Shown here: in pieces, positions 13,346 to 26,203 of the stretch | How positions within the stretch are numbered: the first letter of the stretch is position 1 | Layout of the letters: each line of letters opens with the position of its first letter | NCBI GenBank assembly: GCA_028698185.1 | Contig: JAQVDW010000005.1 | Coordinates: 60,001 to 92,000 of the forward strand | Direction of reading: 5' to 3' | DNA: 32,000 nt | DNA from: Erysipelotrichaceae bacterium | Lineage (GTDB): Bacteria; Bacillota_I; Bacilli_A; Erysipelotrichales; Coprobacillaceae | Position numbers and translations under genes: made by a program | The notes under the pieces: model-generated | What the model saw: only the letters and a program-made list of their open reading frames with translations | What the model was told of the DNA's origin: nothing | The model's database searches: none

Positions 13346-14722
13346 ATGAATTATTATCTGGCAATCGATATCGGCGCATCCAGCGGCCGGCATATCCTGT
13401 GCAGCCTGCAAGATGACAAACTGGTCCTGGAAGAAGTATATCGGTTTTGCAACAATGTAGTTAAAAAAGAAGGTCATTATCATTGGGATATCGACAATCT
13501 CTTTGATCAGATCAAAACGGGTTTGAAGGAATGCAAGAAAGTGGGCAAGATCCCCAAGACAATGGCGATCGACACCTGGGCGGTTGATTATGCCCTGCTT
13601 GATAAAAGCGGCCAGGCTATCAACGGGGTTTACGCCTATCGGGATTCCCGCAACGATAAGGGGGTCAAATCAATCCAAAGCAAGATCGCTCCAGAAAAGC
13701 TTTACGGACTGACCGGACTCCAGTTCCAAAAGTTCAACACCATCTATCAGCTTTCAAGCGAAGATGACAGGGCTAAAAAGGAAGCATGTGATTTCCTGAT
13801 GGTTCCCGACTATCTCAACTATCTCCTTACCGGAGAAATGGCAAACGAGTACACCAACATGTCGACAACCCAGCTGCTCGACATCAAGACCAATAAGCTT
13901 GATGAAAGCCTGGTGGAACTGACGGGATTCAATCCGGACATCTTCAAGAAGATGGTGATGCCTGGGACCAAGCTGGGCCACTTTGCTAAGGACATTGCCG
14001 GCGAAGTTGGTTTTGACTGCGAAGTTGTCGTTCCGGCAACCCATGATACCGGCAGCGCCTATATGGCGGCTATCGAAGCCAACAGCATCATCCTTTCATC
14101 GGGAACCTGGTCGCTGCTGGGCATCGAGAGCTTGGAGCCGATTGTCAATGAGGCGGCCCGGTTGGCCAACTTCACCAATGAGGGCGGCTACAATTACCGT
14201 TACCGGTTCTTGAAAAACATCATGGGGCTCTGGATCATCCAGGAAGTAGCCCGAGAGTACCATGGCGAATACGGTTTTGGCCAGCTGGTCGAAATGGCAA
14301 GAAAAGAGCCGTTTAAAGGGATCTTCGATGTCAATGCCGACCGCTTCTTGAAGCCGGAAAACATGATTGAAGAAATCATTGCCTACTTCAAGGAACGCGA
14401 CCAGGCCTGTCCCAAAACCGCAGGCGAAATCGCCTATTGTGTCTACAATTCCCTGGCGTACTGCTACAAAGAGGCCATCGAGGAATTGGAAGCAATCACC
14501 GGCAATGAGTATGGAACAATCAATATCATCGGCGGTGGATGCCAGAATATCCTGCTCAATGAGATGATTGCGGCCACCTGCAATAAGAGGGTCGTGGCTG
14601 GTCCAATCGAGGCAACGGCATTGGGCAATATCCTTTCACAGCTAATCAGTGATGGTGTGGTCAACTCGCTTGAGCAAGGCCGTAAGCTGATCCGGGATTC
14701 ATTTGAAATTAAAACATACTAG
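13346..14722 (+). CDS. rhaB: Rhamnulokinase
   Basis: This is an FGGY-family kinase with the N-terminus MNYYLAIDIGASSGRHIL and motifs AIDTWAVDYALLD and IIGGGCQN. It is 458 aa and sits immediately upstream of rhaA and rhaD. Confidence 0.9.
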   Translation: MNYYLAIDIGASSGRHILCSLQDDKLVLEEVYRFCNNVVKKEGHYHWDIDNLFDQIKTGLKECKKVGKIPKTMAIDTWAVDYALLDKSGQAINGVYAYRDSRNDKGVKSIQSKIAPEKLYGLTGLQFQKFNTIYQLSSEDDRAKKEACDFLMVPDYLNYLLTGEMANEYTNMSTTQLLDIKTNKLDESLVELTGFNPDIFKKMVMPGTKLGHFAKDIAGEVGFDCEVVVPATHDTGSAYMAAIEANSIILSSGTWSLLGIESLEPIVNEAARLANFTNEGGYNYRYRFLKNIMGLWIIQEVAREYHGEYGFGQLVEMARKEPFKGIFDVNADRFLKPENMIEEIIAYFKERDQACPKTAGEIAYCVYNSLAYCYKEAIEELEAITGNEYGTINIIGGGCQNILLNEMIAATCNKRVVAGPIEATALGNILSQLISDGVVNSLEQGRKLIRDSFEIKTY

Positions 14723-14734
14723 AGGAGAATAGAG

Positions 14735-15994
14735 ATGGATTTTGAAAAAAGATATCAAGAAGCAAAAGAAGTGTATGCGACTTTAGGCATCGATGTCGAT
14801 GGAGCGTTGGAAAAATTGGATAATTTCCCGATTTCAATGCACTGCTGGCAAGGTGATGACGTGGTCGGATTTGACGGGGCAGGTGCTCTTAGCGGTGGAA
14901 TCCAGACAACTGGAAACTATCCCGGAAAAGCGACAACTCCCGAGCAACTGATGGGAGACATCGACAAGGTTTTTTCACTGACACCGGGAAAAAAACACCG
15001 GATCAACCTTCACGCCTGTTATGCGATTTTCCAGGAAGGTCAATGGGCTGACCGTGATCAACTTGAACCAAAACACTTCCAGGCTTGGGTTGACTATGCC
15101 AAACAAAGAGGGCTGGGACTGGATTTCAATCCGACTATCTTCTCCCATCCAAAAGCGACAGGGTTGACTCTGTCTTCACCGGATAAGGAAATCCGCGATT
15201 TCTGGATCAGACACAGCCAGGCCTGCATTAGAATCAGCGAATATTTCGCAACTGAACTGGGCACACCTTGTCTGATGAATATCTGGATTCCCGATGGTTT
15301 GAAGGATATCCCCGGTGACCGGATGGCACCACGAAGAAGATTCAAGGAATCGTTGGATGAGATCCTGTCAATCGATTATGACAAGGAAAAAGTTCTTGTA
15401 TGTCTGGAATCGAAGGTGTTTGGAATCGGGATGGAATCATACACCGTCGGATCATCGGAGTTCACCTTGAACTATGCCAAGAGTGCGGGAATCACTCCAT
15501 TGATGGACAACGGCCACTATCACCCGACCGAAGTCGTTTCCGACAAACTTTCGGCAATGCTGCTGTTCAATGACAAAGTGGCTCTTCACGTGACTCGTCC
15601 GGTACGTTGGGACAGTGACCACGTAGTCCTGTTCGATGATGAAACAAAAGAAATCGCCAAGGAAATCGTCAGAAATGATGCCATGGAACGGGTTCTTGTC
15701 GGGCTTGACTTCTTCGATGCGAGCATCAACCGCATATCGGCTTGGACTGTTGGGATGCACAACATGCAAAAGGCGATGCTCAACGCCTTGTTGACACCAC
15801 ACGCGCAGCTGGCAAAACTGCAGGATGAAGGCAACTTCACGAAAATCATGGCGATCCAGGAAGAGCTGAAGACTTATCCATTCGGTGATGTATGGAACTA
15901 CTACATGGCCAAAAACAATCTGCCATCATATCTTGACTGGTTCAAAGAGATTGAACAATATGAAACAGATGTATTATCGAAAAGGGGACAATAG
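14735..15994 (+). CDS. rhaA: L-rhamnose isomerase
   Basis: It is 419 aa with [20 protein letters not shown] and DNGHYHPTE, which are characteristic of RhaA. GAGGAG lies upstream. Confidence 0.92.
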
Positions 15995-15995
15995 A

Positions 15996-16823
15996 ATGAA
16001 TATATTGGAATTGGAATTTATCAAAGGATTCATCCGGATGTGCGACGACGGGTTCAACCAGGGCTGGCATGAACGCAACGGCGGGAACCTGACTTACCGA
16101 ATCAAGGCTGAAGAGATTGCAAAAACAGCAGGAATGCTTGACGAATCCAAGGAATGGGTGGCCATCGGTACCGAAGTGCCTAGCCTGGCTGGGGAGTACT
16201 TCCTGGTTACCGGTTCGGGAAAATATTTCCGCAACGTGGCTCTTGCTCCTGAAACAAATATCGCGATCATCAAAATCGATGATACCGGAACAAAATACCA
16301 GCTGCAATGGGGTCTTGTCGATGGCGGGAAACCGACAAGCGAGCTGCCATCACATCTGATGAACCATGCGGTCAAAAAGGCGGCATCAAACGGTAAACAT
16401 CGGGTTATCTACCATGCCCACACGACCAATGTGATCGCCCTGACTTTCGTATTGCCTTTGCGTGATGAAGTTTTCACTCGGGAACTTTGGGAAATGGCTA
16501 CGGAATGTCCGGTTGTCTTCCCAGGGGGAATCGGAATGGTTCCTTGGATGGTGCCTGGAGGCAAAGCAATCGCTGTGGCAACCTCTAAACTGATGGAAAA
16601 ATACGATGTGGCGATCTGGGCTCATCACGGGATGTTCTGCTCAGGTGAGGATTTCGATCTGACTTTTGGTCTGATGCATACGGTTGAAAAATCGGCGGAA
16701 ATCCTGGTTAAAGTACTGTCAATCCAGCCAACCAAGCTCCAAACTATCCAGGCCGATGAGTTCCGCGAATTGGCTAATGATTTCAATGTCAATTTGCCTG
16801 AAGAATTTCTGTTTGAAAAATAG
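15996..16823 (+). CDS. rhaD: Rhamnulose-1-phosphate aldolase
   Basis: This is a class II aldolase with GWHERNGGNLTYR, SELPSHLM and YHAHTTNVIALT. I place the start at ATG 15996, 1 nt after the rhaA stop. The ORF-track start at 15885 overlaps rhaA. Confidence 0.9.
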   Translation: MNILELEFIKGFIRMCDDGFNQGWHERNGGNLTYRIKAEEIAKTAGMLDESKEWVAIGTEVPSLAGEYFLVTGSGKYFRNVALAPETNIAIIKIDDTGTKYQLQWGLVDGGKPTSELPSHLMNHAVKKAASNGKHRVIYHAHTTNVIALTFVLPLRDEVFTRELWEMATECPVVFPGGIGMVPWMVPGGKAIAVATSKLMEKYDVAIWAHHGMFCSGEDFDLTFGLMHTVEKSAEILVKVLSIQPTKLQTIQADEFRELANDFNVNLPEEFLFEK

Positions 16824-16837
16824 GAGGGGGAACAAAG

Positions 16838-17995
16838 ATGTCAAAAAGATTTATATTAAACGAAACCAGCTACCATGGTAGCGGTGCAATCAAGGAAATT
16901 GTAAGCGAAGCAGTTTCCCGTCAATTCAAAAAAGCCCTTATTGTCACTGACAAGGACCTGGTGAAATTCCAGGTGGTCAAAAAAGTCACTGACCTGTTGG
17001 ACGAGGCGGGACTGGCATACGAGATTTTCGACGAAGTCATGGCCAATCCGACCATCGAACTGGTTACCAATGGAGTCGCTGCCTTCAAAAAAAGCGGGGC
17101 CGACTACATGATCGCCATCGGGGGCGGGTCACCTCAGGATGCGGCCAAGGCGATCGGAATCATCATCAACAATCCAGAATTCGCCGATGTGAGATCTTTG
17201 GAAGGAGTGGCGCCGACCAAAAACAAATGCGTTCCGATTATTGCAGTGGCAACGACAGCTGGAACCGCAGCCGAAACGACAATCAACTACGTCATCACCG
17301 ACGTCCAAAACAAGCGCAAGTTCGTCTGCGTCGATGTCCATGACATCCCGGTTGTGGCGATCGTTGATCCGGACATGATGGCTTCGATGCCAAAAGGACT
17401 TACTGCGGCTACCGGCCTTGATGCCTTGACTCATGCGATTGAAGGGTATACGACTCTAGGAGCGTGGGAACTCGCTGATACTCTCAATCTTAAAGCGATC
17501 GGACTGATTGCAAGAAGCCTGGAAGCAGCCTGCCAGAACGATCCCAAAGGTCGAGAAGACATGGCTTTGGGTCAATATATGACCGGAATGGCTTTCTCGA
17601 ACGTGGGACTGGGTGTGGTCCATGGGATGGCTCATCCACTAAGCGCATTTTACGACACGCCTCATGGCATCGCCAATGCCGTGCTGCTTCCTTACGTGAT
17701 GGAGTACAACAAGGACTTCACCGGTTCGAAATTCAGGGAAATCGCCAGAGCGATGGGTGTGAGTGGTGTCGACGCCATGAGCGAAGCACAGTACAAGCAA
17801 GCAGCTATCGATGCTGTTGTCACATTGTCTAAAAACTGCTCAATTCCTCAGACCTTGAGGGAAATCGGTGTCAAGGAAGAAGACCTGGAAGCCTTGAGCG
17901 AAGCGGCTATGGCCGATGTGTGCACCGGGGGTAATCCGCGTCCTTGCCAAAAGAGCGAAATCCTGGATCTATATAAAAAAGCATATAACGGTTGA
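16838..17995 (+). CDS. fucO: Lactaldehyde reductase (iron-containing alcohol dehydrogenase, 1,2-propanediol oxidoreductase)
   Basis: It belongs to the Fe-ADH family (GGGSPQDAAKAIG, LTHAIEGY, HGMAHPL). It is 385 aa and is the last gene of the rha operon, the usual position for the lactaldehyde-reducing step. AGGAGGGGG lies upstream. Confidence 0.85.
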   Translation: MSKRFILNETSYHGSGAIKEIVSEAVSRQFKKALIVTDKDLVKFQVVKKVTDLLDEAGLAYEIFDEVMANPTIELVTNGVAAFKKSGADYMIAIGGGSPQDAAKAIGIIINNPEFADVRSLEGVAPTKNKCVPIIAVATTAGTAAETTINYVITDVQNKRKFVCVDVHDIPVVAIVDPDMMASMPKGLTAATGLDALTHAIEGYTTLGAWELADTLNLKAIGLIARSLEAACQNDPKGREDMALGQYMTGMAFSNVGLGVVHGMAHPLSAFYDTPHGIANAVLLPYVMEYNKDFTGSKFREIARAMGVSGVDAMSEAQYKQAAIDAVVTLSKNCSIPQTLREIGVKEEDLEALSEAAMADVCTGGNPRPCQKSEILDLYKKAYNG

Positions 17996-18601: not shown

Positions 18602-19228
18602 CTATTTTTTTGTGATTTTCAGATCTTTGAAATATGCTTCGGTGCCGATTTCCGACCAAAGTCCGATTCCTCCGGTCGCATCGCTGCCATGGAACATGTC
18701 GTTGACAATCAGGGCCGGCTGGGATGCGTTGTTGACAAAAAGTAGGGCTTTTGAACCTTCGACTTCGATTTTCAAATCAATCCAGGCTTCAAATTCCATG
18801 TCCGCATAGGCTTCATATTTGCCCGCGGCAATCTCGCGCAATCTGTCATATTTGTATTCCGGATATGAATAGTATTGGATTGAATGGTTGCGGCGCAGCT
18901 GGTCATCGCAGCGGGCGTTCAGTGGCCGGACGTAAATCGATTCATAAGCGGTATTGGCAGAGTTGATGCGAAATGCCACTCCTAAAAAGCCACGGGCATG
19001 AGCGGGAGCGTCTTTCAACAGGCGGCTGAACACTTTGACTTCGATGATGCCATCATGGAAATCATCGCTACCATTGAATCGGGCGTAGGTCGGTTCATCG
19101 TCTTTGATGACTTCCGGGCTTTTCAATACTTTCAATACCGGGTCGCCATCGAGCGGTGTTTCTTCGACTGTGGAATTGACAGCGGTGAAATATTCAAGTG
19201 TCATTGGGATAAAATCAGTTTTGTTCAT
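18602..19228 (-). CDS. Hypothetical cytoplasmic protein, concanavalin-A-like/LamG jelly-roll (DUF1080-like) fold suspected
   Basis: The sequence has a beta-rich repeat pattern. The C-terminal signature ...LLFVNNASQPALIVNDMF.GSDATGGIGLWSEIGTEAYFKDLKI resembles the terminal strands of DUF1080/3-keto-disaccharide-hydrolase-type lectin folds. There is no signal peptide. The second ATG (19228) is preferred because GGAG is only ~2 nt from the first ATG (19234). This is a weak family call. Confidence 0.45.
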   Translation of the reverse strand: MNKTDFIPMTLEYFTAVNSTVEETPLDGDPVLKVLKSPEVIKDDEPTYARFNGSDDFHDGIIEVKVFSRLLKDAPAHARGFLGVAFRINSANTAYESIYVRPLNARCDDQLRRNHSIQYYSYPEYKYDRLREIAAGKYEAYADMEFEAWIDLKIEVEGSKALLFVNNASQPALIVNDMFHGSDATGGIGLWSEIGTEAYFKDLKITKK

Positions 19229-19295
19229 TTGCATTCTCCTTTGTTTTTCATGATCACACTATAGATTATAGCATCATAAAAAAGGATGTAAATAA

Positions 19296-19387
19296 GGCAC
19301 AATTTTGTAACTGTGGAATTTTTTGAAATAAGTCGTTTCAAATCGAGATTCAAATTAAGTTCTCTTGGTTACATATTTGTGCCTACT
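19296..19387. repeat. Inverted pair of the GGCACAAWTTTGTAAC motif (copies B and C) in the divergent promoter region
   Basis: GGCACAATTTTGTAAC lies at 19296-19311, and GTTACATATTTGTGCCTACT at 19368-19387 is its reverse complement (14/16 complementary), with 56 nt between them. The same motif occurs at 18537-18556 (AGTAGGCACAAATTTGTAAC) and inverted at 18563-18579. Confidence 0.6.
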
Positions 19388-19459
19388 TAACATTGATAAC
19401 TTCCCGGTGTATACTTTTAGCGGATTGGAAAATCCAAATCAAGAAAAAGGAGAAATATC

Positions 19460-19678
19460 ATGACAACATTCCAAAAAAAATTAAGTGCCCAAGCTTTCTT
19501 TAGAGCGGCGGCAACTGAGGCTTCATCATCTTGTGGCAGCGCCTGTGGTGCTGGCGATAAGGAAGTCAAAGAAGAAACTCCAAGTGCTTGTGGCAGTGCC
19601 TGTGGTGCTGGCGACAAGGAAGTCAAAGAAGAAACTCCAAGCGCTTGTGGCAGCGCTTGTGGTGCCGGGGACAAATAA
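19460..19678 (+). CDS. Cys-rich repeat peptide, candidate RiPP precursor (ACGX-repeat-like; three CGSACGAGD modules)
   Basis: AAGGAG lies 8 nt upstream of the ATG. The 72-aa product is a leader-like MTTFQKKLSAQAFFRAAATEASSS followed by (CGSACGAGDKEVKEETPSA)x2 and CGSACGAGDK. All 7 variable codons among the DNA repeat copies are synonymous in this frame. The gene lies directly upstream of a radical SAM/SPASM gene. Confidence 0.8.
   Translation: MTTFQKKLSAQAFFRAAATEASSSCGSACGAGDKEVKEETPSACGSACGAGDKEVKEETPSACGSACGAGDK
19532..19675 (+). repeat. 57-bp tandem repeat, 2.5 copies, coding for the peptide modules
   Basis: The copies are 19532-19588, 19589-19645 and a partial copy at 19646-19675. Copies 1 and 2 differ at 3 of 57 nt. 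Confidence 0.95.
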
Positions 19679-19703
19679 TTCTTAGAGTTTTTTCATCCGT
19701 TCT

Positions 19704-19730
19704 AGCTGACAGTCTTGTCAGCTTCTTTTA
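19704..19730 (+). terminator. Hairpin/attenuator between the precursor gene and the maturase gene
   Basis: AGCTGACA-gtct-TGTCAGCT (8-bp stem) is followed by TCTTTTA. It is 26 nt after the peptide stop and 56 nt before the rSAM ATG. Confidence 0.55.
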
Positions 19731-19785
19731 GAAATCACGCAAGAGCGTTGAGATAGATCATCAATAACGAAAGAGGATAATAATC

Positions 19786-20811
19786 ATGGAATATTTCGCA
19801 TTTCAATTTCATATAACCGACCAGTGTGACCAGCGGTGCGAGCACTGCTACATCTTTGCCGAGGACAACAACATCTGCTTGAAAGAGATGGAATTGGAGG
19901 ATGTTGAAAAAGTCATCACCAATTGTGTCGACATGTGTACGAGAATGGAACGACTGCCTTATTTTTACATTACCGGAGGCGATCCGATCCTCCATCAGAA
20001 TTTCTGGGATATCGCAAAACTGCTCAAAGAGCGCAACATCCCTTTTGGCATCCTGGGCAATCCGTTCCATCTCAACGATGAAACATGTGCCCGGTTGGCC
20101 CAACATGGCTGCAAGAAATACCAGCTTTCGATCGATGGGATGGAAAAAACCCATGACTTCATCCGCAAGCCTGGTTCGTTTGCGACCACCCTTGCCAAGA
20201 TTCCGGTTCTCAAAAAAGCCGGTATCGATGTGGCCATCATGACGACAGTTTCTGGAACAAATATAGATGAGATGGAAGACATTGTCGACCTGGTTGTCGA
20301 ACACGAAGCGGACATTTTCGCTTTTGCCCGCTACTGCCCGACCAGCTTTGAAAAGGAAACCCACATTGAACCATTGGAATATCGGAATTTGCTTGACCGG
20401 TTGTGGCAAAAGTTCGAAACGTACCAGGATGGGCCCACTACCTTCAACCTCAAGGACCATCTATGGAATCTCTACCTTTATGAAAAGGGCCTGTATCAGA
20501 TTCACGAAGGATTGGAACAAGACAAAATCCATGACGGATGCAACTGCGCCAACTGTCATATGACGATTTTGCCTGACGGTGCTGTCTATGCCTGCCGCCG
20601 GATGGAAAGCAATATCGGCAATGTATTGAGCCAGAGCATCTATGATCTTTATCATGGCAAGGAAATGGAAGCATACCGCCAATATGACAAGTTTGAAAAA
20701 TGCGCCAAATGCGAGCTGCTCAACTTCTGCCGCGGGTGTCCGGCGGTGGCCTATGGCTATACCCACGACATGTACGCGCCCGACCCGCAGTGCTGGAAAG
20801 AAATCGATTAG
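19786..20811 (+). CDS. Radical SAM/SPASM-domain peptide-modifying enzyme (no N-terminal RRE domain)
   Basis: The CX3CX2C motif is at residues 14-21 (CDQRCEHC), followed by a GGDP (GGEP-like) motif. The C-terminal SPASM signature is CHMTILPDGAVYAC ... CAKCELLNFCRGC ... C. The protein is 341 aa, and AGAGGA lies 8 nt upstream. Confidence 0.9.
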   Translation: MEYFAFQFHITDQCDQRCEHCYIFAEDNNICLKEMELEDVEKVITNCVDMCTRMERLPYFYITGGDPILHQNFWDIAKLLKERNIPFGILGNPFHLNDETCARLAQHGCKKYQLSIDGMEKTHDFIRKPGSFATTLAKIPVLKKAGIDVAIMTTVSGTNIDEMEDIVDLVVEHEADIFAFARYCPTSFEKETHIEPLEYRNLLDRLWQKFETYQDGPTTFNLKDHLWNLYLYEKGLYQIHEGLEQDKIHDGCNCANCHMTILPDGAVYACRRMESNIGNVLSQSIYDLYHGKEMEAYRQYDKFEKCAKCELLNFCRGCPAVAYGYTHDMYAPDPQCWKEID

Positions 20812-20824
20812 TGAGGAGGATATC

Positions 20825-21418
20825 ATGGAACAAACCAATGAAGTAATTGAATGTTTGCAAAAGCGCCGGACCTACCGCCAGTTCCAGGACCGGTCAATTG
20901 AAAGGGAGAAACTCGACCTGATTGTCAATGCCGGTCTGGTCGCCCCCAATGCCGGAGGCCGCCAGGGCCCGGTATTCATCGTTTGCCAGGATAAGACAGT
21001 CAATACATTGTTGGGAGAAGCCAGACGGCAGGCCAGTTCCATTCCAACCGGACGTCACGTTTCTAAGGAACAGCCCAGTGTGATCGACAATCCAAACATC
21101 AAAAACAGTTTCTATGGGGCTCCGGTGGTTGTCACCATCGCCGCACCGAAAAATTTCATTTTCAGTCAAAGTGATGCGGCTATGGCAGCCCAAAATATGA
21201 TTATCGCGGCCACCTCCCTGGAAATTGCATCTTGTTTTATCGGTAGGGCGGAAACGACTTTCAATACCGGAATCGGCGTAGTTATCTGGAATGATTGGAA
21301 TATCGCAGAAAATCTCAAACCGTTCTGTCATATCCTGCTTGGCTACCCGGCGGGAATTCCGCCCAAACCTAAACAAATCAAGGAAAACCGGGTTTTCTTC
21401 GTCAACCAGGACCAATAA
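20825..21418 (+). CDS. Nitroreductase-family FMN oxidoreductase
   Basis: It has LQKRRTYRQFQDRSIEREKLDLIVNAGLVAPNAGGRQ, a typical nitroreductase N-terminus, and is 197 aa. I place the start at ATG 20825 after GAGGAGGA. The ORF-track start at 20642 overlaps the rSAM gene. Confidence 0.85.
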   Translation: MEQTNEVIECLQKRRTYRQFQDRSIEREKLDLIVNAGLVAPNAGGRQGPVFIVCQDKTVNTLLGEARRQASSIPTGRHVSKEQPSVIDNPNIKNSFYGAPVVVTIAAPKNFIFSQSDAAMAAQNMIIAATSLEIASCFIGRAETTFNTGIGVVIWNDWNIAENLKPFCHILLGYPAGIPPKPKQIKENRVFFVNQDQ

Positions 21419-22367
21419 TGCATGATATCTGGAATCCCTGGCATGGCTGTGTGAAAATCAGCGAAGGCTGTGCCAACTGCTACATGTATTTTCTCGACAA
21501 GAAAAACGGAAAAGATGGGGCAGTGATCTATCGTTCCAAAAACAACTTTGATTACCCTTTGAAAAGGACCGCCAGGGCGAATACAAAATCAAAAGTGGCG
21601 AAATAATCCGGGTCGCGATGACTTCGGACTTCTTCCTCGAACAAGCCGACCAGTGGCGTGATGAGGCCTGGAAAATCATGGAAGCCCGTAGCGATGTCAT
21701 CTTTTTCCTGTTGACCAAACGGGCCCAACGGATCAATGAGTGCCTGCCCGAAAGTTTCCAAAACGGCCGATGGGATATGGCGAATATCTTCATCAATGTC
21801 TCGTGCGAGAATCAGCGCCTGGCCGATTTGCGGATCCCCTATCTTTTGAAAGTCCCGATAAAGCACAAGGGGATCATGGCGGCGCCTTTTATCGGGCCAA
21901 TCAACATCGAAAAGTATCTGGCAACCGGAATGATTGAACAGGTGATTTGCGGTGGGGAGAATTATGGCGGGGCGAGGATGTGCGACTTTGACTGGGTCAG
22001 GGATCTGGGGGGCCAATGCCGGGACCATCAAGTCAAGTTCGCTTTCATCGAAACCGGGTCTATTTTTTGCAAGGATGGCCAGCGTTACAAGATTGCCCCA
22101 AAAGCCATGCAAAGCCGTCTGGCCTACAAATCGAAAGCCAGTCTTGAAGGCAAGAAGATAACTTTCGATCTGCATGATGTCAATAAAAATCCGATTCCCA
22201 AAGACAAGTTGCATGTGCCCCATTACCGGGAAACTTGCCGCTATTGTGGCAGCAGATCCATCTGCAATGGTTGCAGTGACTGTGGCCGATGTAATGGCGA
22301 AATAATCACTCAGGAACAAATGAAAATCCATGACCAGGAATATTTCAAAAAAGGAGCTAAAAAATGA
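21418..22367 (+). pseudogene. DUF5131 (phage Gp37/Gp68-like three-Cys) protein with a Cys-rich C-terminal tail, interrupted by a single frameshift
   Basis: Fragment 21418-21606 carries the family hallmark WNPWHGCVKISEGCANCY. Fragment 21618-22367 carries SDFFLE, FFLLTKR, GGENYGGARMCDFDWVRDLGGQC and a tail CRYCGSRSICNGCSDCGRC. The second frame is open back to 21552. Inserting one A into the A4 run at 21562-21565 joins them as ...DYPLKKDRQGEYKIKSGEIIRVAMTSDFF... The start overlaps the nitroreductase stop (TAATG). Confidence 0.75.
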
Positions 22368-23335
22368 AAGCAGTATTGTTGGAGAAACCGATCAAAGCCA
22401 ATGAAATGAAAATTGTCGAAGTGCCAAAGCTTAAAATCAGACCAGGATGGGTTTTGATCAAAGTCAAAGGTTTCGGGTTGAACCGGGCCGAATTGATTTT
22501 GCGCAATCATGAAATCGCAGCGGATTACATCCAGAAGCCGGTTGTTCCGGGTATCGAGTGTGTCGGGGAAATTCATGATGGAGGCGACAGCCGTTTCAAC
22601 AAGGGCGATAAAGTAGTCGCCTTGATGGGCGGAATGGGCCGGAGTTTTAACGGCAGCTACAGTGAGTATGCCTTGTTGCCGGCCCACCATGTGTTCAAGG
22701 TGGAAACCGCAATGGATTGGGTCGAATTGGCTGCGATTCCCGAAACGTTTTACACGGCCTACGGTTCGCTGTTCGAATCGCTCCAGCTCAAAGGAGATGA
22801 TATCCTGCTTGTCCATGGGGCGACCTCGGCGCTTGGTTTGGCAGCCATCCAGCTGGCCAAAACAGTGGGAGCTACGGTTATTGGCACCTCACGCAAGGAA
22901 GAACGCCTGGACTTGTTGCGGGAGGTTGGTTGTGACCATGCCCTTGTGGATGATGAAAACCTGGTTGCCAAGATCAAGGATATATATTCAAAGGGCATCA
23001 CGAAAATTTTGGAATTGGTCGGAGCCCATACGATCGCCAAAACAGCCCAACTGCTTAGAATTGGGGGAATTGTCTGTGTCACTGGCAAACTGGGCGGGGG
23101 CCAGACTAACGGCTTGGATCTGATCCGCCTGCTGCCAAATGGCACCTATCTTTGTGGTTTCTACAGCAATTATCCGACCCAGGCGGTGATTGATGATATC
23201 TTCAGGATCATCGAACAACACAACATCAAGCCGGTAATTGGCCGGGTCTTCGACTTTGAGCAGATCGGTGAAGCCCATGAGGTGATGGAAAACAACCAGG
23301 CCCAAGGGAAAATTGTCATCAGAATGAGTGAGTGA
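22364..23335 (+). CDS. Medium-chain (zinc-type) dehydrogenase/reductase, quinone-oxidoreductase-like
   Basis: It has a GroES-like N-terminus (MKAVLLEKP...PGWVLIKVKGFGLNRAEL...PGIECVGE) and a Rossmann motif (VHGATSALGLAAIQLAK). It is 323 aa. The start overlaps the DUF5131 stop (ATGA). Confidence 0.85.
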   Translation: MKAVLLEKPIKANEMKIVEVPKLKIRPGWVLIKVKGFGLNRAELILRNHEIAADYIQKPVVPGIECVGEIHDGGDSRFNKGDKVVALMGGMGRSFNGSYSEYALLPAHHVFKVETAMDWVELAAIPETFYTAYGSLFESLQLKGDDILLVHGATSALGLAAIQLAKTVGATVIGTSRKEERLDLLREVGCDHALVDDENLVAKIKDIYSKGITKILELVGAHTIAKTAQLLRIGGIVCVTGKLGGGQTNGLDLIRLLPNGTYLCGFYSNYPTQAVIDDIFRIIEQHNIKPVIGRVFDFEQIGEAHEVMENNQAQGKIVIRMSE

Positions 23336-23353
23336 GACACGCAATTAAACCAA

Positions 23354-23415
23354 AAAAACCTCGCATCGACTGATCCCTGAACTGCTCAGGAGATCACAAT
23401 CTTGGCGAGGTTTTT
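23354..23415. terminator. Two-tier bidirectional terminator between the MDR gene and the HxlR gene
   Basis: The outer 11-bp stem is AAAAACCTCGC...GCGAGGTTTTT. It encloses an inner 10-bp hairpin at 23371-23396. An A-run lies on one side and a T-run on the other. Confidence 0.55.
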
Positions 23416-23446
23416 AAGTTGGCAGATTCCATAGATGAGTCTGTGG

Positions 23447-23773
23447 CTATCCGACGAAGTCCTTGTACTGGTTGCCCCATTCTTCCATCGATTTGAACAA
23501 GGGTCTAAGACTGTTGCCCATGTCGGTGAGCGAATACTCCACTTTCGGGGGCACGACCGGGTAGGCCTTGCGGTCGACAATGCCATCGGCTTCCAATTGG
23601 CGCAGGTTGTCGGTGAGCACCTTCTGGGAAATTCCTGGCAGGCTGTTTTTCAGCTCGCCAAAACGGCAGGTCGAAACCAGAAGATTCCGGATGATCAATA
23701 ATTTCCATTTGTTGCCGATGATCTCAACCATGGTGGCCACCGGGCAAGCAGGCAGTTCGTCTTTGGTAAGCAT
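23447..23773 (-). CDS. HxlR (DUF24/MarR-like) family transcriptional regulator
   Basis: The signature is CPVATMVEIIGNKWKLLIIRNLL...RFGELKNSLPGISQKVLTDNLRQLEADGIV. It is 108 aa with an N-terminal Cys10, and GGAG lies upstream. Confidence 0.9.
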   Translation of the reverse strand: MLTKDELPACPVATMVEIIGNKWKLLIIRNLLVSTCRFGELKNSLPGISQKVLTDNLRQLEADGIVDRKAYPVVPPKVEYSLTDMGNSLRPLFKSMEEWGNQYKDFVG

Positions 23774-23894
23774 AATTTTCTCCTTAGTATCTGATATGGT
23801 GTAAGTATAAAATATAATGTATGGATTGTCAATATGGTCCCGCTGATTAACCTATCTCGTTGGCCATAGTCACTTTCAGGTAACTAGATAATAA

Positions 23895-23910
23895 AAAAGT
23901 GCGTACTTTT
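23895..23910. promoter_or_regulatory. Near-perfect 16-bp palindrome in the HxlR/sirtuin divergent intergenic region (candidate operator)
   Basis: AAAAGTGCGTACTTTT has 7 of 8 positions self-complementary. It is followed by a candidate extended -10, TGgTAAGAT, at ~23924-23932 on the plus strand. Confidence 0.3.
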
Positions 23911-24023
23911 GCGAATGAATTATTTTTGGTAAGATGAATTTGGCTCAAGGAGGGCCGATGAAAATCTAATATTATAATCAGATTCAAGATGGGGATCAAT
24001 CGGTTATGGAAGGAGTTGTAATC

Positions 24024-24944
24024 ATGGAATTTTACAGCAATTATTGTCAGAAAAAAAATAAAAGTCAAAATTATCCGAGTTTGGAACAGAGAGTCAAAAC
24101 TGTTCGGGAATTGCTTGAAGAGGCCGAGTATGTTGTCATCGGGGCCGGTTCGGGTTTGTCGTCGGCGGCCGGTCTTGACTTTGGCGGCGAGCGGTTTGAA
24201 AAATATATGGGCGAATTCGGATCAAGGTATGGCTATCATGACATGTATAGCGGTGATTTTTACAACTACCAGACGCGTGAGGAATTCTGGGCGTTCGAGG
24301 CCAAGACAATCCTGGTTAACCGCTATGAGGTGCCCGGTTTGAAACTGTATCACAAGTTGTTTGACTTGATCAAGGATAAAAACCATTTCGTGATCACAAC
24401 CAATGTCGAAAGCCAGTTTGCCAAATCGGGATTCGATTCCAATCGCATCTTCGCGACCCAGGGTGATTACAGCAAGCTTCAATGTGGTGGCGCCTGCCAC
24501 GACACCCTGTATGACAATGAAAAGTTGGTCAAAGAAATGGTTGCCAAGACAAGAGACTGTGCCATCCCGACTGAACTGATTCCCAAATGTCCGATATGCC
24601 ATAGGGAAATGAAGGTCAACTTGCGCAGCGATGGCTACTTTGTCGAAGACAAATCATGGCATGAGGCCTGCAGCCGCTATGAATCATTCATCAGCTCCAT
24701 CAATAAGGCACCGGTGGTTTATCTGGAATTCGGGGTCGGCTACAATACGCCGGGCATCATCCGCTATCCCTTCGAACGCTTCACATACGCCAACCCCAAC
24801 GCCCATCTAATCCGCTTCAACCGGGACTATCCCGAAGGAATCACTGAAAACAAAGACAAGACGATCGGTTTCACCGAGGATATGAATATGGTCCTCGCCA
24901 TGTTATTCGAACCGACAAAAGGAGAACAGGAAAATGAGCTTTAA
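24024..24944 (+). CDS. Sir2-family protein, class-M-like sirtuin (probable NAD-dependent protein ADP-ribosyltransferase, SirTM type)
   Basis: It has the NAD-binding loop VIGAGSGLSSAAGLDF and Zn-ribbon Cys pairs CGGAC and CPIC. FATQGDYSKLQC occupies the position of the canonical sirtuin xxHG motif, so Gln replaces the catalytic His. ATG 24024 is preferred because GGAAGGAG lies 8 nt upstream; the ORF-track ATG 24006 is also possible. Confidence 0.75.
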   Translation: MEFYSNYCQKKNKSQNYPSLEQRVKTVRELLEEAEYVVIGAGSGLSSAAGLDFGGERFEKYMGEFGSRYGYHDMYSGDFYNYQTREEFWAFEAKTILVNRYEVPGLKLYHKLFDLIKDKNHFVITTNVESQFAKSGFDSNRIFATQGDYSKLQCGGACHDTLYDNEKLVKEMVAKTRDCAIPTELIPKCPICHREMKVNLRSDGYFVEDKSWHEACSRYESFISSINKAPVVYLEFGVGYNTPGIIRYPFERFTYANPNAHLIRFNRDYPEGITENKDKTIGFTEDMNMVLAMLFEPTKGEQENEL

Positions 24945-25473
24945 AGAAATAGGAATTGAAGAATTGGAAATAAACCCGATGACAATGATCGGAGGCGACT
25001 GGTGGTTGATCAGTGCTGGTAATGAACAAAATGGTTACAATGCGATGACGGCCTCATGGGGGCATCTAGGCGCAATCTGGGAAAGACCTGAAGGCAAAGC
25101 CCACATGGGATTGCCGACTGCCTGTGTCTATTTGCGCCCGCAACGCTATACCAAGGAATATCTTGAGCGCGAGGACATTTTCACACTGAGTGTGTTCGAA
25201 AGCAATCACAAAAGGGCCCTAGGCTACCTTGGCAGCCACAGCGGCCGCAATGAAGATAAAATCGCCAATGCCAACCTGACACCAGTATTCGATCAGGGCA
25301 CAATCTACTATGAACAGGCTAAAATGGTCTTTGTCTGCAAGAAGATCTACAATGCCCCATTGCAAGAAAGCGGCTTTGTCGATACCAGCCTGGTTGAAAA
25401 CAACTACCCGAAAAAAGATTTCCACGAAATGTATATCGGAGAAATTGTCAAAGTCCTGGTCAAGAATGACTGA
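24934..25473 (+). CDS. Flavin reductase-like (FMN-binding split-barrel) protein
   Basis: It is 179 aa, and ...NPMTMIGGDWWLISAGNEQNGYNAMTASWG... is typical of the flavin-reductase-like domain family. It overlaps the sirtuin gene end by 11 nt. Confidence 0.75.
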   Translation: MSFKEIGIEELEINPMTMIGGDWWLISAGNEQNGYNAMTASWGHLGAIWERPEGKAHMGLPTACVYLRPQRYTKEYLEREDIFTLSVFESNHKRALGYLGSHSGRNEDKIANANLTPVFDQGTIYYEQAKMVFVCKKIYNAPLQESGFVDTSLVENNYPKKDFHEMYIGEIVKVLVKND

Positions 25474-26203
25474 TGATTTGGATAACTTGACTCAAGAGCT
25501 CAACGATTTCGTCCAGGAAAAAGGGATCGATATTTTCGGGATCGGGGATGTCGACTATCTCAACCAGATGGCCCGACCCGGCCGCCGGCTAGAAGATCTG
25601 TTTCCCGGTGGCCAGGCGGTGTTGATCTTTGGCTGTGGCATAGACCATTCCCTGGCGCGGGCTTGGGTCAAATCCGGAAGAGGAAAATATCTGACTCTGA
25701 CGATGACTGCCTTGGAAAACCGTAAGTGGCTGATCAAGGATTTTCTTGCTAGAAAAGGCTACCGCACATTCGGGGGTGAATTTCACGGCGGAGGAATTTG
25801 GGAAACCGGAATCCGTCTGGGAGAAGCCGGAGCCAGTGCCGGTCTGGGCTACATTGGCAAAAACAATATGCTTATCACTCCCAAATACGGACCCCGGGTC
25901 AACCTGGCGTACCTGGTCACCGATGCCCCGCTGCAAACGACAGTGGTCACTCCCAAAAATGAATGTGGCACCTGTGCGATCTGCGAAAAATATTGCACCA
26001 GCAAGGCGATTTTAGGTGATGGTTATTTCCATGGCCGGGCCTGCGAGAGTGTCATCAACTGCATGGCAAACAAGATCCACCTGACCAGTCAGGTCACGAT
26101 GGATTGCGATATGTGTCAAAGGATGTGTCCCCAAGGGGAAATCAAATATTCAAAAATAGAACGTCAGGGTACCTGGTGGGACAAATTGGAGCAATATCAA
26201 TGA
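25466..26203 (+). CDS. Epoxyqueuosine-reductase (QueG)-like 2x[4Fe-4S] protein
   Basis: It has GLGYIGKNNMLITPKYGPRVNLAYLVTDAPL, then CGTCAICEKYC and CDMCQRMCP ferredoxin-type motifs. I place the start at ATG 25466 (ATGACTGA overlap with the upstream stop). The ORF-track start at 25310 lies inside the previous gene. Confidence 0.7.
   Translation: MTDDLDNLTQELNDFVQEKGIDIFGIGDVDYLNQMARPGRRLEDLFPGGQAVLIFGCGIDHSLARAWVKSGRGKYLTLTMTALENRKWLIKDFLARKGYRTFGGEFHGGGIWETGIRLGEAGASAGLGYIGKNNMLITPKYGPRVNLAYLVTDAPLQTTVVTPKNECGTCAICEKYCTSKAILGDGYFHGRACESVINCMANKIHLTSQVTMDCDMCQRMCPQGEIKYSKIERQGTWWDKLEQYQ

Follow-up and report, generated by a model that had tools for sequence, protein, structure and literature searches.

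What does a compact operon make when it couples a repeat-bearing peptide gene to a radical enzyme and a run of redox proteins, and which of its genes belong to the pathway? This question was raised by a stretch of 32,000 nucleotides from an Erysipelotrichaceae bacterium (contig JAQVDW010000005.1 of assembly GCA_028698185.1, positions 60,001 to 92,000; the whole stretch is hereafter called the window). An earlier note on this DNA had described five tightly packed genes as a possible undescribed peptide-modification system: a repeat peptide, a radical S-adenosylmethionine (SAM) enzyme with a SPASM domain (rSAM), a nitroreductase, a DUF5131 protein and a medium-chain dehydrogenase/reductase (MDR). 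Comparison with related loci led us to a different composition. The core of the system, which is catalogued under the name ACGX, consists of an HxlR-family regulator, the peptide, an rSAM enzyme lacking the recognition element (RRE) of pathways to RiPPs (peptides made on ribosomes and modified after translation), and one NAD(P)H reductase, and this core is widespread in anaerobes.

The peptide and the rSAM enzyme were both readily assigned to existing NCBIfam models. The peptide scored 49.7 bits against TIGR04341 (ACGX-repeat peptide; cut-off 28), and the enzyme 575.8 bits against TIGR04340 (radical SAM/SPASM, ACGX system; cut-off 400), with residues 2-340 aligned to profile positions 1-341. 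The rSAM protein was moreover 100% identical to an Erysipelotrichaceae metagenome-assembled genome (MAG) protein at NCBI annotated as 'radical SAM/SPASM domain protein, ACGX system', and peptide genes on related contigs were labelled PF27855 Target_ACGX in precomputed Pfam annotation. Judged by sequence, the window locus belongs to the catalogued ACGX system (TIGR04340/TIGR04341, PF27855), with no difference at the family level. The claim that the peptide-rSAM pair is undescribed was thus not supported, both members scoring over the curated cut-offs. These models are a computational family definition (NCBIfam model type 'hypoth_equivalog'); since the pair itself is already modelled in databases, only the chemistry and function of the ACGX system are undescribed.

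To define the genes that accompany this pair, we scanned a one-genome-per-species collection with an rSAM profile made from an alignment of 15 homologues. The scan yielded at least 581 confirmed ACGX loci (581 of the first 600 pattern matches). Eighty loci with up to 10 kb of flanking DNA, whose rSAM is 60-76% identical to that of the window, were kept; they came from Bacteroidales, Lachnospiraceae, Clostridium, Oscillospiraceae, Syntrophomonadaceae, Treponema and one Planctomycetota MAG. Neighbourhoods were compared by tblastn with the window proteins and by unbiased all-against-all clustering of open reading frames (ORFs) within 6 kb. A homologue of the ACGX peptide was found in every locus having upstream DNA (76/76).

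The position after the rSAM gene was almost as constant. Downstream DNA was available for 79 loci, and in 74 of these the gene directly 3′ of rSAM and on the same strand encoded an MDR or a nitroreductase. The MDR, found in 44, typically overlaps the rSAM stop codon with its start (median gap -1 nt), and the nitroreductase, found in 30, follows at a median gap of 11.5 nt. Four of the five remaining loci had one of the two enzymes elsewhere, either on the same strand 0.6-1.6 kb downstream (L025, L064, L066) or upstream (L002), and the contig of the fifth ends early. Parsimony on a neighbour-joining tree of 81 rSAM proteins placed at least seven exchanges between MDR and nitroreductase, while the reductase slot was never lost. 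Because of these repeated partner changes, we regard the two reductases as interchangeable occupants of one obligatory slot. Most ACGX loci carry a nitroreductase or an MDR and rarely both, a pattern that does not support a five-gene unit; the lineage of the window carries both.

The association was also detected in the reverse direction. A protein database was searched with the MDR and the nitroreductase, and homologues on long contigs were picked blind to their context. All four MDR homologues (54-59% identity) lay directly after an ACGX peptide and rSAM, and all four nitroreductase homologues (44-49% identity) lay directly after an rSAM/SPASM gene with HxlR upstream. For at least 17 further top MDR matches, the longest contig was of the same size as for top rSAM matches, which suggests that these genes are on the same contigs as the rSAM matches. 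The earlier note had left it to neighbourhood comparison whether the nitroreductase and the MDR accompany such pairs elsewhere; both do, and both are linked specifically to ACGX pairs across phyla.

A further near-constant partner lies outside the five genes. The gene convergent with the window operon encodes an HxlR/DUF24-family regulator (117.6 bits against its Pfam profile) that resembles RrpA and RrpB, redox regulators of Campylobacter. Of 69 loci whose upstream DNA was long enough, 65 had an HxlR gene, which was divergent from the peptide gene in 55. The window HxlR is 81% identical to the regulator of L001, which is divergent from the peptide gene, and has been relocated downstream of the operon. 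Cys10-Pro11 was conserved in all 66 aligned HxlR sequences, and Cys10 corresponds to the sensing Cys14 (EGCPVE) of Bacillus subtilis HypR. Regulators of the DUF24/HxlR family sense diamide, quinones, aldehydes and hypochlorite (NaOCl) via an N-terminal cysteine, and their targets include the nitroreductases HypO and YodC and, in the QorR-QorA pair of Corynebacterium, the quinone oxidoreductase QorA (PMC3351151). By analogy, HxlR is predicted to be the thiol-based redox/electrophile sensor of the ACGX system, and we infer that the operon would be under thiol-stress control, as for HypR, YodB and QorR. The HxlR gene, absent from the five-gene description, is a core part of the ACGX system.

Beyond these genes, unbiased clustering of the 81 loci revealed no conserved transporter, peptidase, immunity gene or further maturase, and the absence of a protease, exporter, YcaO or lanthionine enzyme that had been noticed around the window operon was borne out. 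Likewise, no Pfam family for an MNIO (DUF692) enzyme with its partner was present in the window locus or in the Pfam-annotated loci, and clustering of the 81 loci gave no further conserved enzyme. Since export, protease and immunity genes are not conserved, an intracellular rather than a secreted product is favoured, as the earlier note had proposed, and the 60-76% identity of rSAM across phyla counts towards the same view. The near-constant company of HxlR and a dedicated reductase suggests that the peptide protects against stress inside the cell and is no antibiotic.

We then turned to the peptide. The window precursor consists of MTTFQKKLSAQAFFRAAATEASSS followed by three CGSACGAGDK units with EVKEETPSA linkers between them. 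Its leader contains LSAQAFF, its repeat unit reads (S/A)CGSACGAGDK, and the three repeats hold six cysteines, each in an x-C-G context. Family peptides likewise have a short leader, then 2-5 repeats of [A/S]-C-G-[S/A]-[A/G]-[C/D/E] with Lys/Glu/Pro linkers between them. The unit can be written in full as [A/S]-C-G-[S/A]-[A/G]-C-G-[A/S/T]-[G/A]-[D/E], or as a single A-C-G-A-G-D; the core contains 3-8 cysteines, and the C-terminus is nearly always ...CGAG(D/E)K. Leaders mostly carry S/T-A-Q-x-Y/F-L/M/F, replaced in one Lachnospiraceae clade by MSNLENVAAFA. A signal peptide or lipobox in the leader was ruled out by inspection, the hydrophobic core being absent.

The residues around the cysteines are strongly constrained. 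Among 75 peptides, the residue preceding Cys was Ala in 83% and Ser in 12% of cases, and the residue following it was Gly in 99%. Four residues downstream (+4), Cys was found in 44%, Asp in 36% and Glu in 14%, the non-acidic residues at this position being mostly the second Cys of a C-X3-C-X3-D/E unit. A clade including L017, L018 and L034 has Lys at +4 and ends in ...ACGSACGAK, without an acidic acceptor.

The rSAM enzyme carries the SAM-cluster motif C14-x3-C18-x2-C21 (PF04055, 75.7 bits; PF13186, 37.9 bits) and a SPASM cysteine set (C252, C254, C270, C306, C309, C315, C318 and C336) that is invariant in the 15 homologues. With the SAM motif beginning at residue 14 and no extra domain in Pfam, it has no N-terminal RRE (PqqD-like) domain, and no conserved small partner protein that could serve as a stand-alone recognition element was found in the 81 loci. 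The reading of the peptide and rSAM as a genuine precursor with its maturase, one that has no N-terminal RRE, was supported. Five more cysteines, C47, C51, C101, C109 and C184, lie outside the SAM-cluster and SPASM motifs and are also invariant in the 15 homologues, which come from several phyla; they may form an extra metal/cluster site or a redox-active pair. One unusual arrangement was seen in Desulfobulbus oligotrophicus (CP054140.1; L169, 1827-3973), one of the four loci sampled through the nitroreductase. Here rSAM is encoded by two ORFs, a 291-aa Radical_SAM and a 242-aa SPASM protein, with two small ORFs between the halves; HxlR lies upstream, the nitroreductase downstream. The locus may have arisen by splitting, rearrangement or duplication.

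Which chemistry could this enzyme perform? Its best non-self family was SbtM (TIGR04082), matched at 183.6 bits over the whole catalytic region, followed by AhbD (123 bits) and PapB (NF047865; 69.5 bits against a cut-off of 340); the MftC model gave 77 bits against a cut-off of 265. The solved structures matched by the rSAM sequence were distant rSAM cores only (the best, SkfB, at E = 1.5e-11), and are uninformative on chemistry. SbtM abstracts the beta-hydrogen of cysteine and converts Gly-Cys(Sec)-Gly to a 5-thio(seleno)oxazole with a loss of 4 Da, and the product absorbs near 304 nm and has a thiol that can still be alkylated (PMC9204691). Oxygen-dependent MNIO enzymes make the same 5-thiooxazole on EGKCG-repeat peptides such as FonA (SGEAKCGEGKCGEK), and the resulting thiooxazole peptides bind copper and form in stress responses (PMC12668002). 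Since x-Cys-Gly is common to the three systems and near-invariant in ACGX peptides, we favour a thiooxazole at each A-C-G. By analogy, SbtM-like conversion of each A-C-G cysteine to 5-thiooxazole would be the likeliest chemistry.

The same system could nevertheless use another chemistry, in which the Cys sulfur is thioether-linked to the beta or gamma carbon of the Asp/Glu four residues downstream, closing small rings in each repeat as in ranthipeptides (PapB/QhpD). An acidic residue at +4 of half of the cysteines is what such a reaction would need, PapB-type thioether cross-linking being known at Cys-X3-Asp/Glu motifs (PMC9413430), and homology of rSAM to PapB, SkfB and further SPASM enzymes that form thioethers can be detected. 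However, the PapB model scored far below SbtM, and the acidic +4 residue is missing from one clade (L017, L018, L034 and others). In addition, the near-invariant Ala/Ser before and Gly after each Cys matter for heterocycles and are unneeded for PapB-type links, and thioether formation would consume the thiols, leaving no obvious job for a dedicated reductase. We consider this alternative unlikely, though serious.

The reading that we prefer, at a confidence somewhat short of even, is that of an SbtM-like thiooxazole peptide, induced by stress and acted on by its partner reductase. Oxidants or electrophiles would modify the N-terminal Cys of HxlR and thereby switch the operon on, and a hairpin after the peptide gene would keep peptide mRNA in excess over enzyme mRNA. 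The rSAM enzyme would then take the beta-hydrogen from each A-C-G cysteine, turning Ala-Cys into a 5-thiooxazole and lowering the mass by 4 Da for each Cys. The product would be a cytoplasmic peptide with many aromatic thiols (six in the window organism), able to scavenge electrophiles or oxidants and/or to bind soft metals such as Cu(I), and would represent an oxygen-independent counterpart of the MNIO-made peptides, the captophorins. Finally, the partner reductase would use NAD(P)H on the peptide or on an oxidised or adducted form of it, as suggested by the tight and specific coupling of the two genes and by the swapping between two hydride-transferring enzyme classes.

The predicted role of the hairpin is in line with the structure of the spacer between the peptide and rSAM genes. 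The earlier note had reported a hairpin in this gap, and both a terminator scan and the centroid fold bore it out: the window spacer folds into an 8-bp stem with a 4-nt GUCU loop and a tail TCTTTTAG (also given as UCUUUUAG). Structure was found in the peptide-rSAM spacer of 54 of 56 related loci, with a mean z of -4.6; these z-scores were computed against mononucleotide shuffles, and their significance is somewhat overstated. The spacer of a Bacteroidales clade forms an 11-bp stem (CUCCGAUG...CAUCGGAG) with compensatory changes at 9 of the 11 pairs, often with a U-rich tract after it (L012, L014, L016, L022, L027 and others). A spacer hairpin is thus characteristic of the family. When 19100-24100 was scanned against Rfam, neither the hairpin nor the terminator that follows the MDR gene was credibly assigned to a family, the sole match being a chance snoRNA (E = 0.36), and the Bacteroidales stem matched no Rfam family either. 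As in many RiPP operons, the hairpin is likely to be a partial terminator/attenuator or a stabiliser giving more peptide mRNA than enzyme mRNA.

Several points weigh against the thiooxazole model. The SbtM match, which covers profile positions 198-515 of 516, falls far short of that family's cut-off (350), and homology predicts the function of SPASM enzymes poorly. The AlphaFold2 model of rSAM, made from the 15-sequence alignment, is weak, with a mean predicted local distance difference test score (pLDDT) of 65.6 and values below 50 in the SAM-motif and SPASM regions. The half of the cysteines that sit in Cys-X3-Asp/Glu motifs also fits PapB-type thioethers. On the regulatory side, an inverted-repeat search and palindrome counts in 73 upstream regions found no operator motif common to the peptide and HxlR promoters; the best palindrome occurred in 5 loci, the window not among them. 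The window HxlR is not adjacent to the peptide promoter, and HxlR proteins are no classical metal sensors, which weakens the copper idea. A literature search, with subscription journals outside its coverage, found no paper on the system and no experiment on any ACGX component. Furthermore, to our knowledge no MDR or nitroreductase acts on thiooxazoles and no mechanism would allow an MDR to reduce disulfides, nor do we know of a precedent for the bond that the partner reductase would reduce. The reductase step is the weakest and least secure part of the model.

This step is also where a further alternative applies, namely that the reductases never touch the peptide. HxlR and the nitroreductase or MDR would then carry out ordinary electrophile/quinone detoxification, with the peptide and rSAM co-regulated in parallel, for instance to provide a thiol scavenger. 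Nitroreductases and a quinone oxidoreductase are the classical targets of DUF24/HxlR regulators (PMC3351151), and interchangeability is what one would expect of broad-specificity detoxification enzymes. The MDR itself is similar in type: its nearest families and structures are PIG3/zeta-crystallin-type quinone oxidoreductases (the PIG3-family match is below cut-off), and its nearest solved relatives are generic quinone oxidoreductases. Zinc-dependent alcohol dehydrogenases have the zinc-ligand motif GHE at a position where the MDR reads PGIECVG, so that the catalytic zinc-ligand motif is not matched. On the other hand, generic detoxification genes would be expected also without a peptide system, whereas all eight sampled MDR and nitroreductase homologues adjoin an ACGX-type rSAM. 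The slot is, moreover, essentially never empty (74/79), and often follows at a gap of -1 nt, translationally coupled. We hold parallel detoxification to be improbable, yet a genuine competitor. The earlier note had raised a related possibility, that genes 3-5 are an unrelated electrophile-stress unit sharing the transcript. The resemblance to an HxlR/DUF24-plus-reductase stress module stands (PMC3351151), but 'unrelated' does not, as the peptide and rSAM genes sit inside the module.

The remaining gene of the original five, DUF5131, gave a contrasting picture. It is not a single intact gene in the window but two ORFs in different frames, 21418-21606 (62 aa, PF07505 positions 9-49) and 21618-22367 (249 aa, positions 78-222). 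We retrieved four contigs encoding the same rSAM protein. Over 4.6 kb, L081 and L082 do not differ from the window (100% identity), whereas L083, 99.85% identical to the window, has an intact DUF5131 of 316 aa (135 bits). Comparison with L083 placed the break near 21561 (about 21555-21570), where a 1-nt deletion in an A-run is accompanied by an adjacent A-to-G change (TTTG-AAAAGG in the window versus TTTGAAAAAGAA in L083). A programmed -1 frameshift was rejected, as TTG AAA AGG is no slippery heptamer and the 99.85%-identical strain has one more A. Either the gene was inactivated very recently or the assembly is in error here, the latter being possible because the window, L081 and L082, which are 100% identical, may derive from one sample.

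Neighbourhood counts likewise separate DUF5131, whose cysteine motif is C-x6-C-x2-C, from the pathway. It was present in 5 of 81 ACGX loci. When the intact protein was used to scan metagenome contigs, 80 loci were obtained (L089-L168; 58-64% identity); 43 of these had a SIR2-like gene as the immediate upstream neighbour, 15 had HxlR in the vicinity, and only 5 contained an ACGX rSAM. These counts led us to regard DUF5131 as a passenger from a separate SIR2-like/DUF5131 two-gene module, which sometimes lands in these redox islands. The SIR2-like gene is also present in the window, at 24006-24944 (+) beyond HxlR, the pair being split around the MDR and HxlR genes. Its product has weak NCBIfam matches to NAD-dependent deacylases and no Pfam match. 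PADLOC gave no defence-system assignment for it, and for DUF5131 only matches to the candidate families PDC-M30B and PDC-M41B.

That all five genes, DUF5131 included, form one obligate pathway, with rSAM cross-linking the peptide and three redox enzymes tailoring it, is thereby very improbable. The tight packing with overlapping stop and start codons would fit such a pathway, as would L173 (rSAM 78% identical), where the order rSAM-nitroreductase-SIR2-like-DUF5131-MDR occurs in one run. Yet DUF5131 is rare in ACGX loci, rSAM is as rare in DUF5131 loci compared with the SIR2-like neighbour, the gene is frameshifted in the window strain, and most loci have one reductase only. DUF5131 as a pathway member was therefore not supported. 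The window genome is unusual in having both reductase types, an inserted broken DUF5131 and an HxlR gene downstream of the operon. As for a secreted antimicrobial RiPP (bacteriocin), RiPP operons typically have such a precursor plus rSAM/SPASM layout and an attenuator hairpin, but with no conserved transporter, leader peptidase or immunity gene in 81 loci, an acidic, repeat-built peptide very highly conserved across phyla, and regulation by a stress sensor, this idea is scarcely credible.

The features of the locus are collected in Table 1. The promoter-like site is 45 nt 5′ of the peptide ATG, which is preceded at 8 nt by an AGGAG ribosome-binding site, and a Shine-Dalgarno-like sequence stands in front of every operon gene. 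The ORF map and the raw sequence confirmed all junctions as originally quoted: gaps of 107 nt between the peptide and rSAM genes and of 13 nt between the rSAM and nitroreductase genes (nitroreductase ATG at 20825), a TAATG overlap between nitroreductase and DUF5131 at 21416-21420, in which the stop and the next ATG have one common base, and an ATGA overlap between DUF5131 and MDR at 22364-22367. Profile searches also upheld the family calls Radical_SAM plus SPASM, Nitroreductase, DUF5131 and ADH_N/ADH_zinc_N. The proposal of a two-tier bidirectional terminator after the MDR gene agreed with fold statistics. It has an outer 11-bp stem between an A-run and a U-run, plus an inner stem, and folds at -41.2 kcal/mol with z of -4.4 on the + strand and -3.9 on the - strand; none of 200 shuffles folded as well. 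This terminator is common to the operon and the convergent HxlR gene.

Table 1. Features of the ACGX locus in the window (positions are those of the window)
Feature	Position	Strand	Size, match or support
ACGX-repeat precursor peptide gene	19460-19678	+	72 aa, TIGR04341 match
Radical SAM/SPASM maturase gene (rSAM)	19786-20811	+	341 aa, TIGR04340 match
FMN nitroreductase-fold reductase gene	20825-21418	+	197 aa, PF00881
DUF5131 gene, disrupted, two ORFs	21418-22367	+	PF07505; accessory, not core
MDR (medium-chain, quinone-oxidoreductase-like) NAD(P)H reductase gene	22364-23335	+	323 aa, ADH_N/ADH_zinc_N
HxlR/DUF24-family regulator gene, convergent with operon	23447-23773	-	108 aa, PF01638
Promoter-like site TTAACA-17-TATACT	19387-19415	+	consensus match 10/12 only
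Stem-loop between peptide and rSAM genes	19704-19723	+	terminator scan and centroid fold
Two-tier bidirectional intrinsic terminator	23354-23415	both strands	fold z-scores

Other genes around the locus were also noted. Divergent from the peptide promoter lies a 210-aa ORF (18602-19234, -) without a Pfam or NCBIfam match, homologues of which (52-58% identity) are present in two other ACGX loci (L019, L030). Further 5′, a rhamnose-catabolism-like cluster (13346-17995, +) encoding an FGGY kinase, a RhaA isomerase, a class II aldolase and an Fe-ADH is unrelated. Beyond the SIR2-like gene, and divergent from HxlR, are a flavin-reductase-like gene (24934-25473, +) and a QueG/reductive-dehalogenase-like 4Fe-4S gene (25466-26203, +), which may constitute a second HxlR-controlled operon; QueG-like homologues next to HxlR and a SIR2-like gene were also seen in L100 and L117.

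Macro-domain proteins and fusions of PNPOx_N with a 4Fe-4S ferredoxin domain recur downstream of ACGX operons (L173, 4718-6175; L174, 8219-9046; L170, 4636-6034; L088, 9678-10496), and 8 of the 81 loci had a member of a Macro-like ORF cluster. These proteins and the SIR2-like gene hint together at NAD/ADP-ribose chemistry in the same stress islands. Four ACGX loci (L052, L053, L058, L077) are labelled 'uncultured Staphylococcus sp.', while in peptides and gene order they resemble typical Bacteroidales loci; the labels look wrong.

The ACGX system is widespread, occurring in Bacteroidota, Bacillota, Spirochaetota, Planctomycetota and Desulfobacterota, and is common in gut and sediment anaerobes; isolates such as Clostridium akagii, Konateibacter massiliensis, Labilibaculum manganireducens and Sporomusa silvacetica are among the matches. 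To its database label our analysis adds a near-constant HxlR, an either/or reductase partner, the exclusion of DUF5131, a conserved spacer hairpin and a testable chemical hypothesis tying ACGX to SbtM and captophorins. Put at its most complete, this hypothesis would make ACGX an oxygen-independent rSAM route to multi-5-thiooxazole peptides, acting as an HxlR-switched, reductase-recycled cytoplasmic thiol buffer or soft-metal chelator in strict anaerobes, including gut Bacteroidales and Lachnospiraceae; in this full form we think it rather unlikely. Should the thiooxazole model hold, it would show how abundant gut anaerobes guard against electrophiles, oxidants or copper, and would mean that a class of metal-binding peptides recognised only of late can be made by a second enzymatic route, an anaerobic one. 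In its full form it would also provide a peptide-based functional analogue of the glutathione, bacillithiol or ovothiol systems; we know of no system of these types in the organisms that carry ACGX.

How does the ACGX system compare with those already characterised? Mycofactocin (MftA/MftB/MftC/MftD) resembles it in that a flavin oxidoreductase accompanies the peptide and its rSAM/SPASM enzyme, and in giving an intracellular redox product that works with NAD(P) dehydrogenases, a feature only predicted for ACGX. However, mycofactocin has a single C-terminal target instead of repeats, and neither an MftB-type RRE nor an MftE-type peptidase is among the conserved neighbours of ACGX. The HypR-HypO, YodB-YodC/AzoR1 and QorR-QorA modules share with it an HxlR/DUF24 regulator with an N-terminal Cys-Pro and a nitroreductase or quinone oxidoreductase. 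They have no peptide or rSAM gene, whereas ACGX has both inserted between regulator and reductase. The PapB/freyrasin ranthipeptides have an rSAM/SPASM enzyme and repeated Cys-X3-Asp/Glu motifs, but the homology is weak, and ACGX peptides conserve the acidic residue less well than the Ala and Gly on either side of Cys.

SbtM/SbtA of Geobacter is the closest characterised enzyme family, and its target too is a Cys/Sec amid small residues followed by Gly (GGUG versus ACG). The two systems differ in that SbtM has an N-terminal extension of about 197 aa that is missing from the ACGX enzyme, and in that ACGX has multi-repeat targets without selenocysteine, as well as a different taxonomic range and different neighbours (HxlR, reductase). 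Captophorins (bufferins, fontiphorin, oxazolin; MNIO/DUF692 plus DUF2063) come closest on the peptide side, being Lys/Glu-rich peptides with repeated x-C-G and a link to stress. In bufferins the precursor bears a signal peptide and is exported, whereas ACGX peptides have no signal peptide. Captophorins depend on an oxygen-dependent non-heme iron enzyme and are described from Pseudomonadota in the papers, unlike ACGX with its radical SAM enzyme and anaerobic hosts. The likeness of the peptides themselves is readily seen in the captophorin FonA, ...AKCGEGKCGEK, set beside ACGX, ...ACGSACGAGDK, with many modified cysteines per peptide in both (predicted in the case of ACGX). By analogy, we hypothesize that ACGX and captophorins have their chemistry in common.

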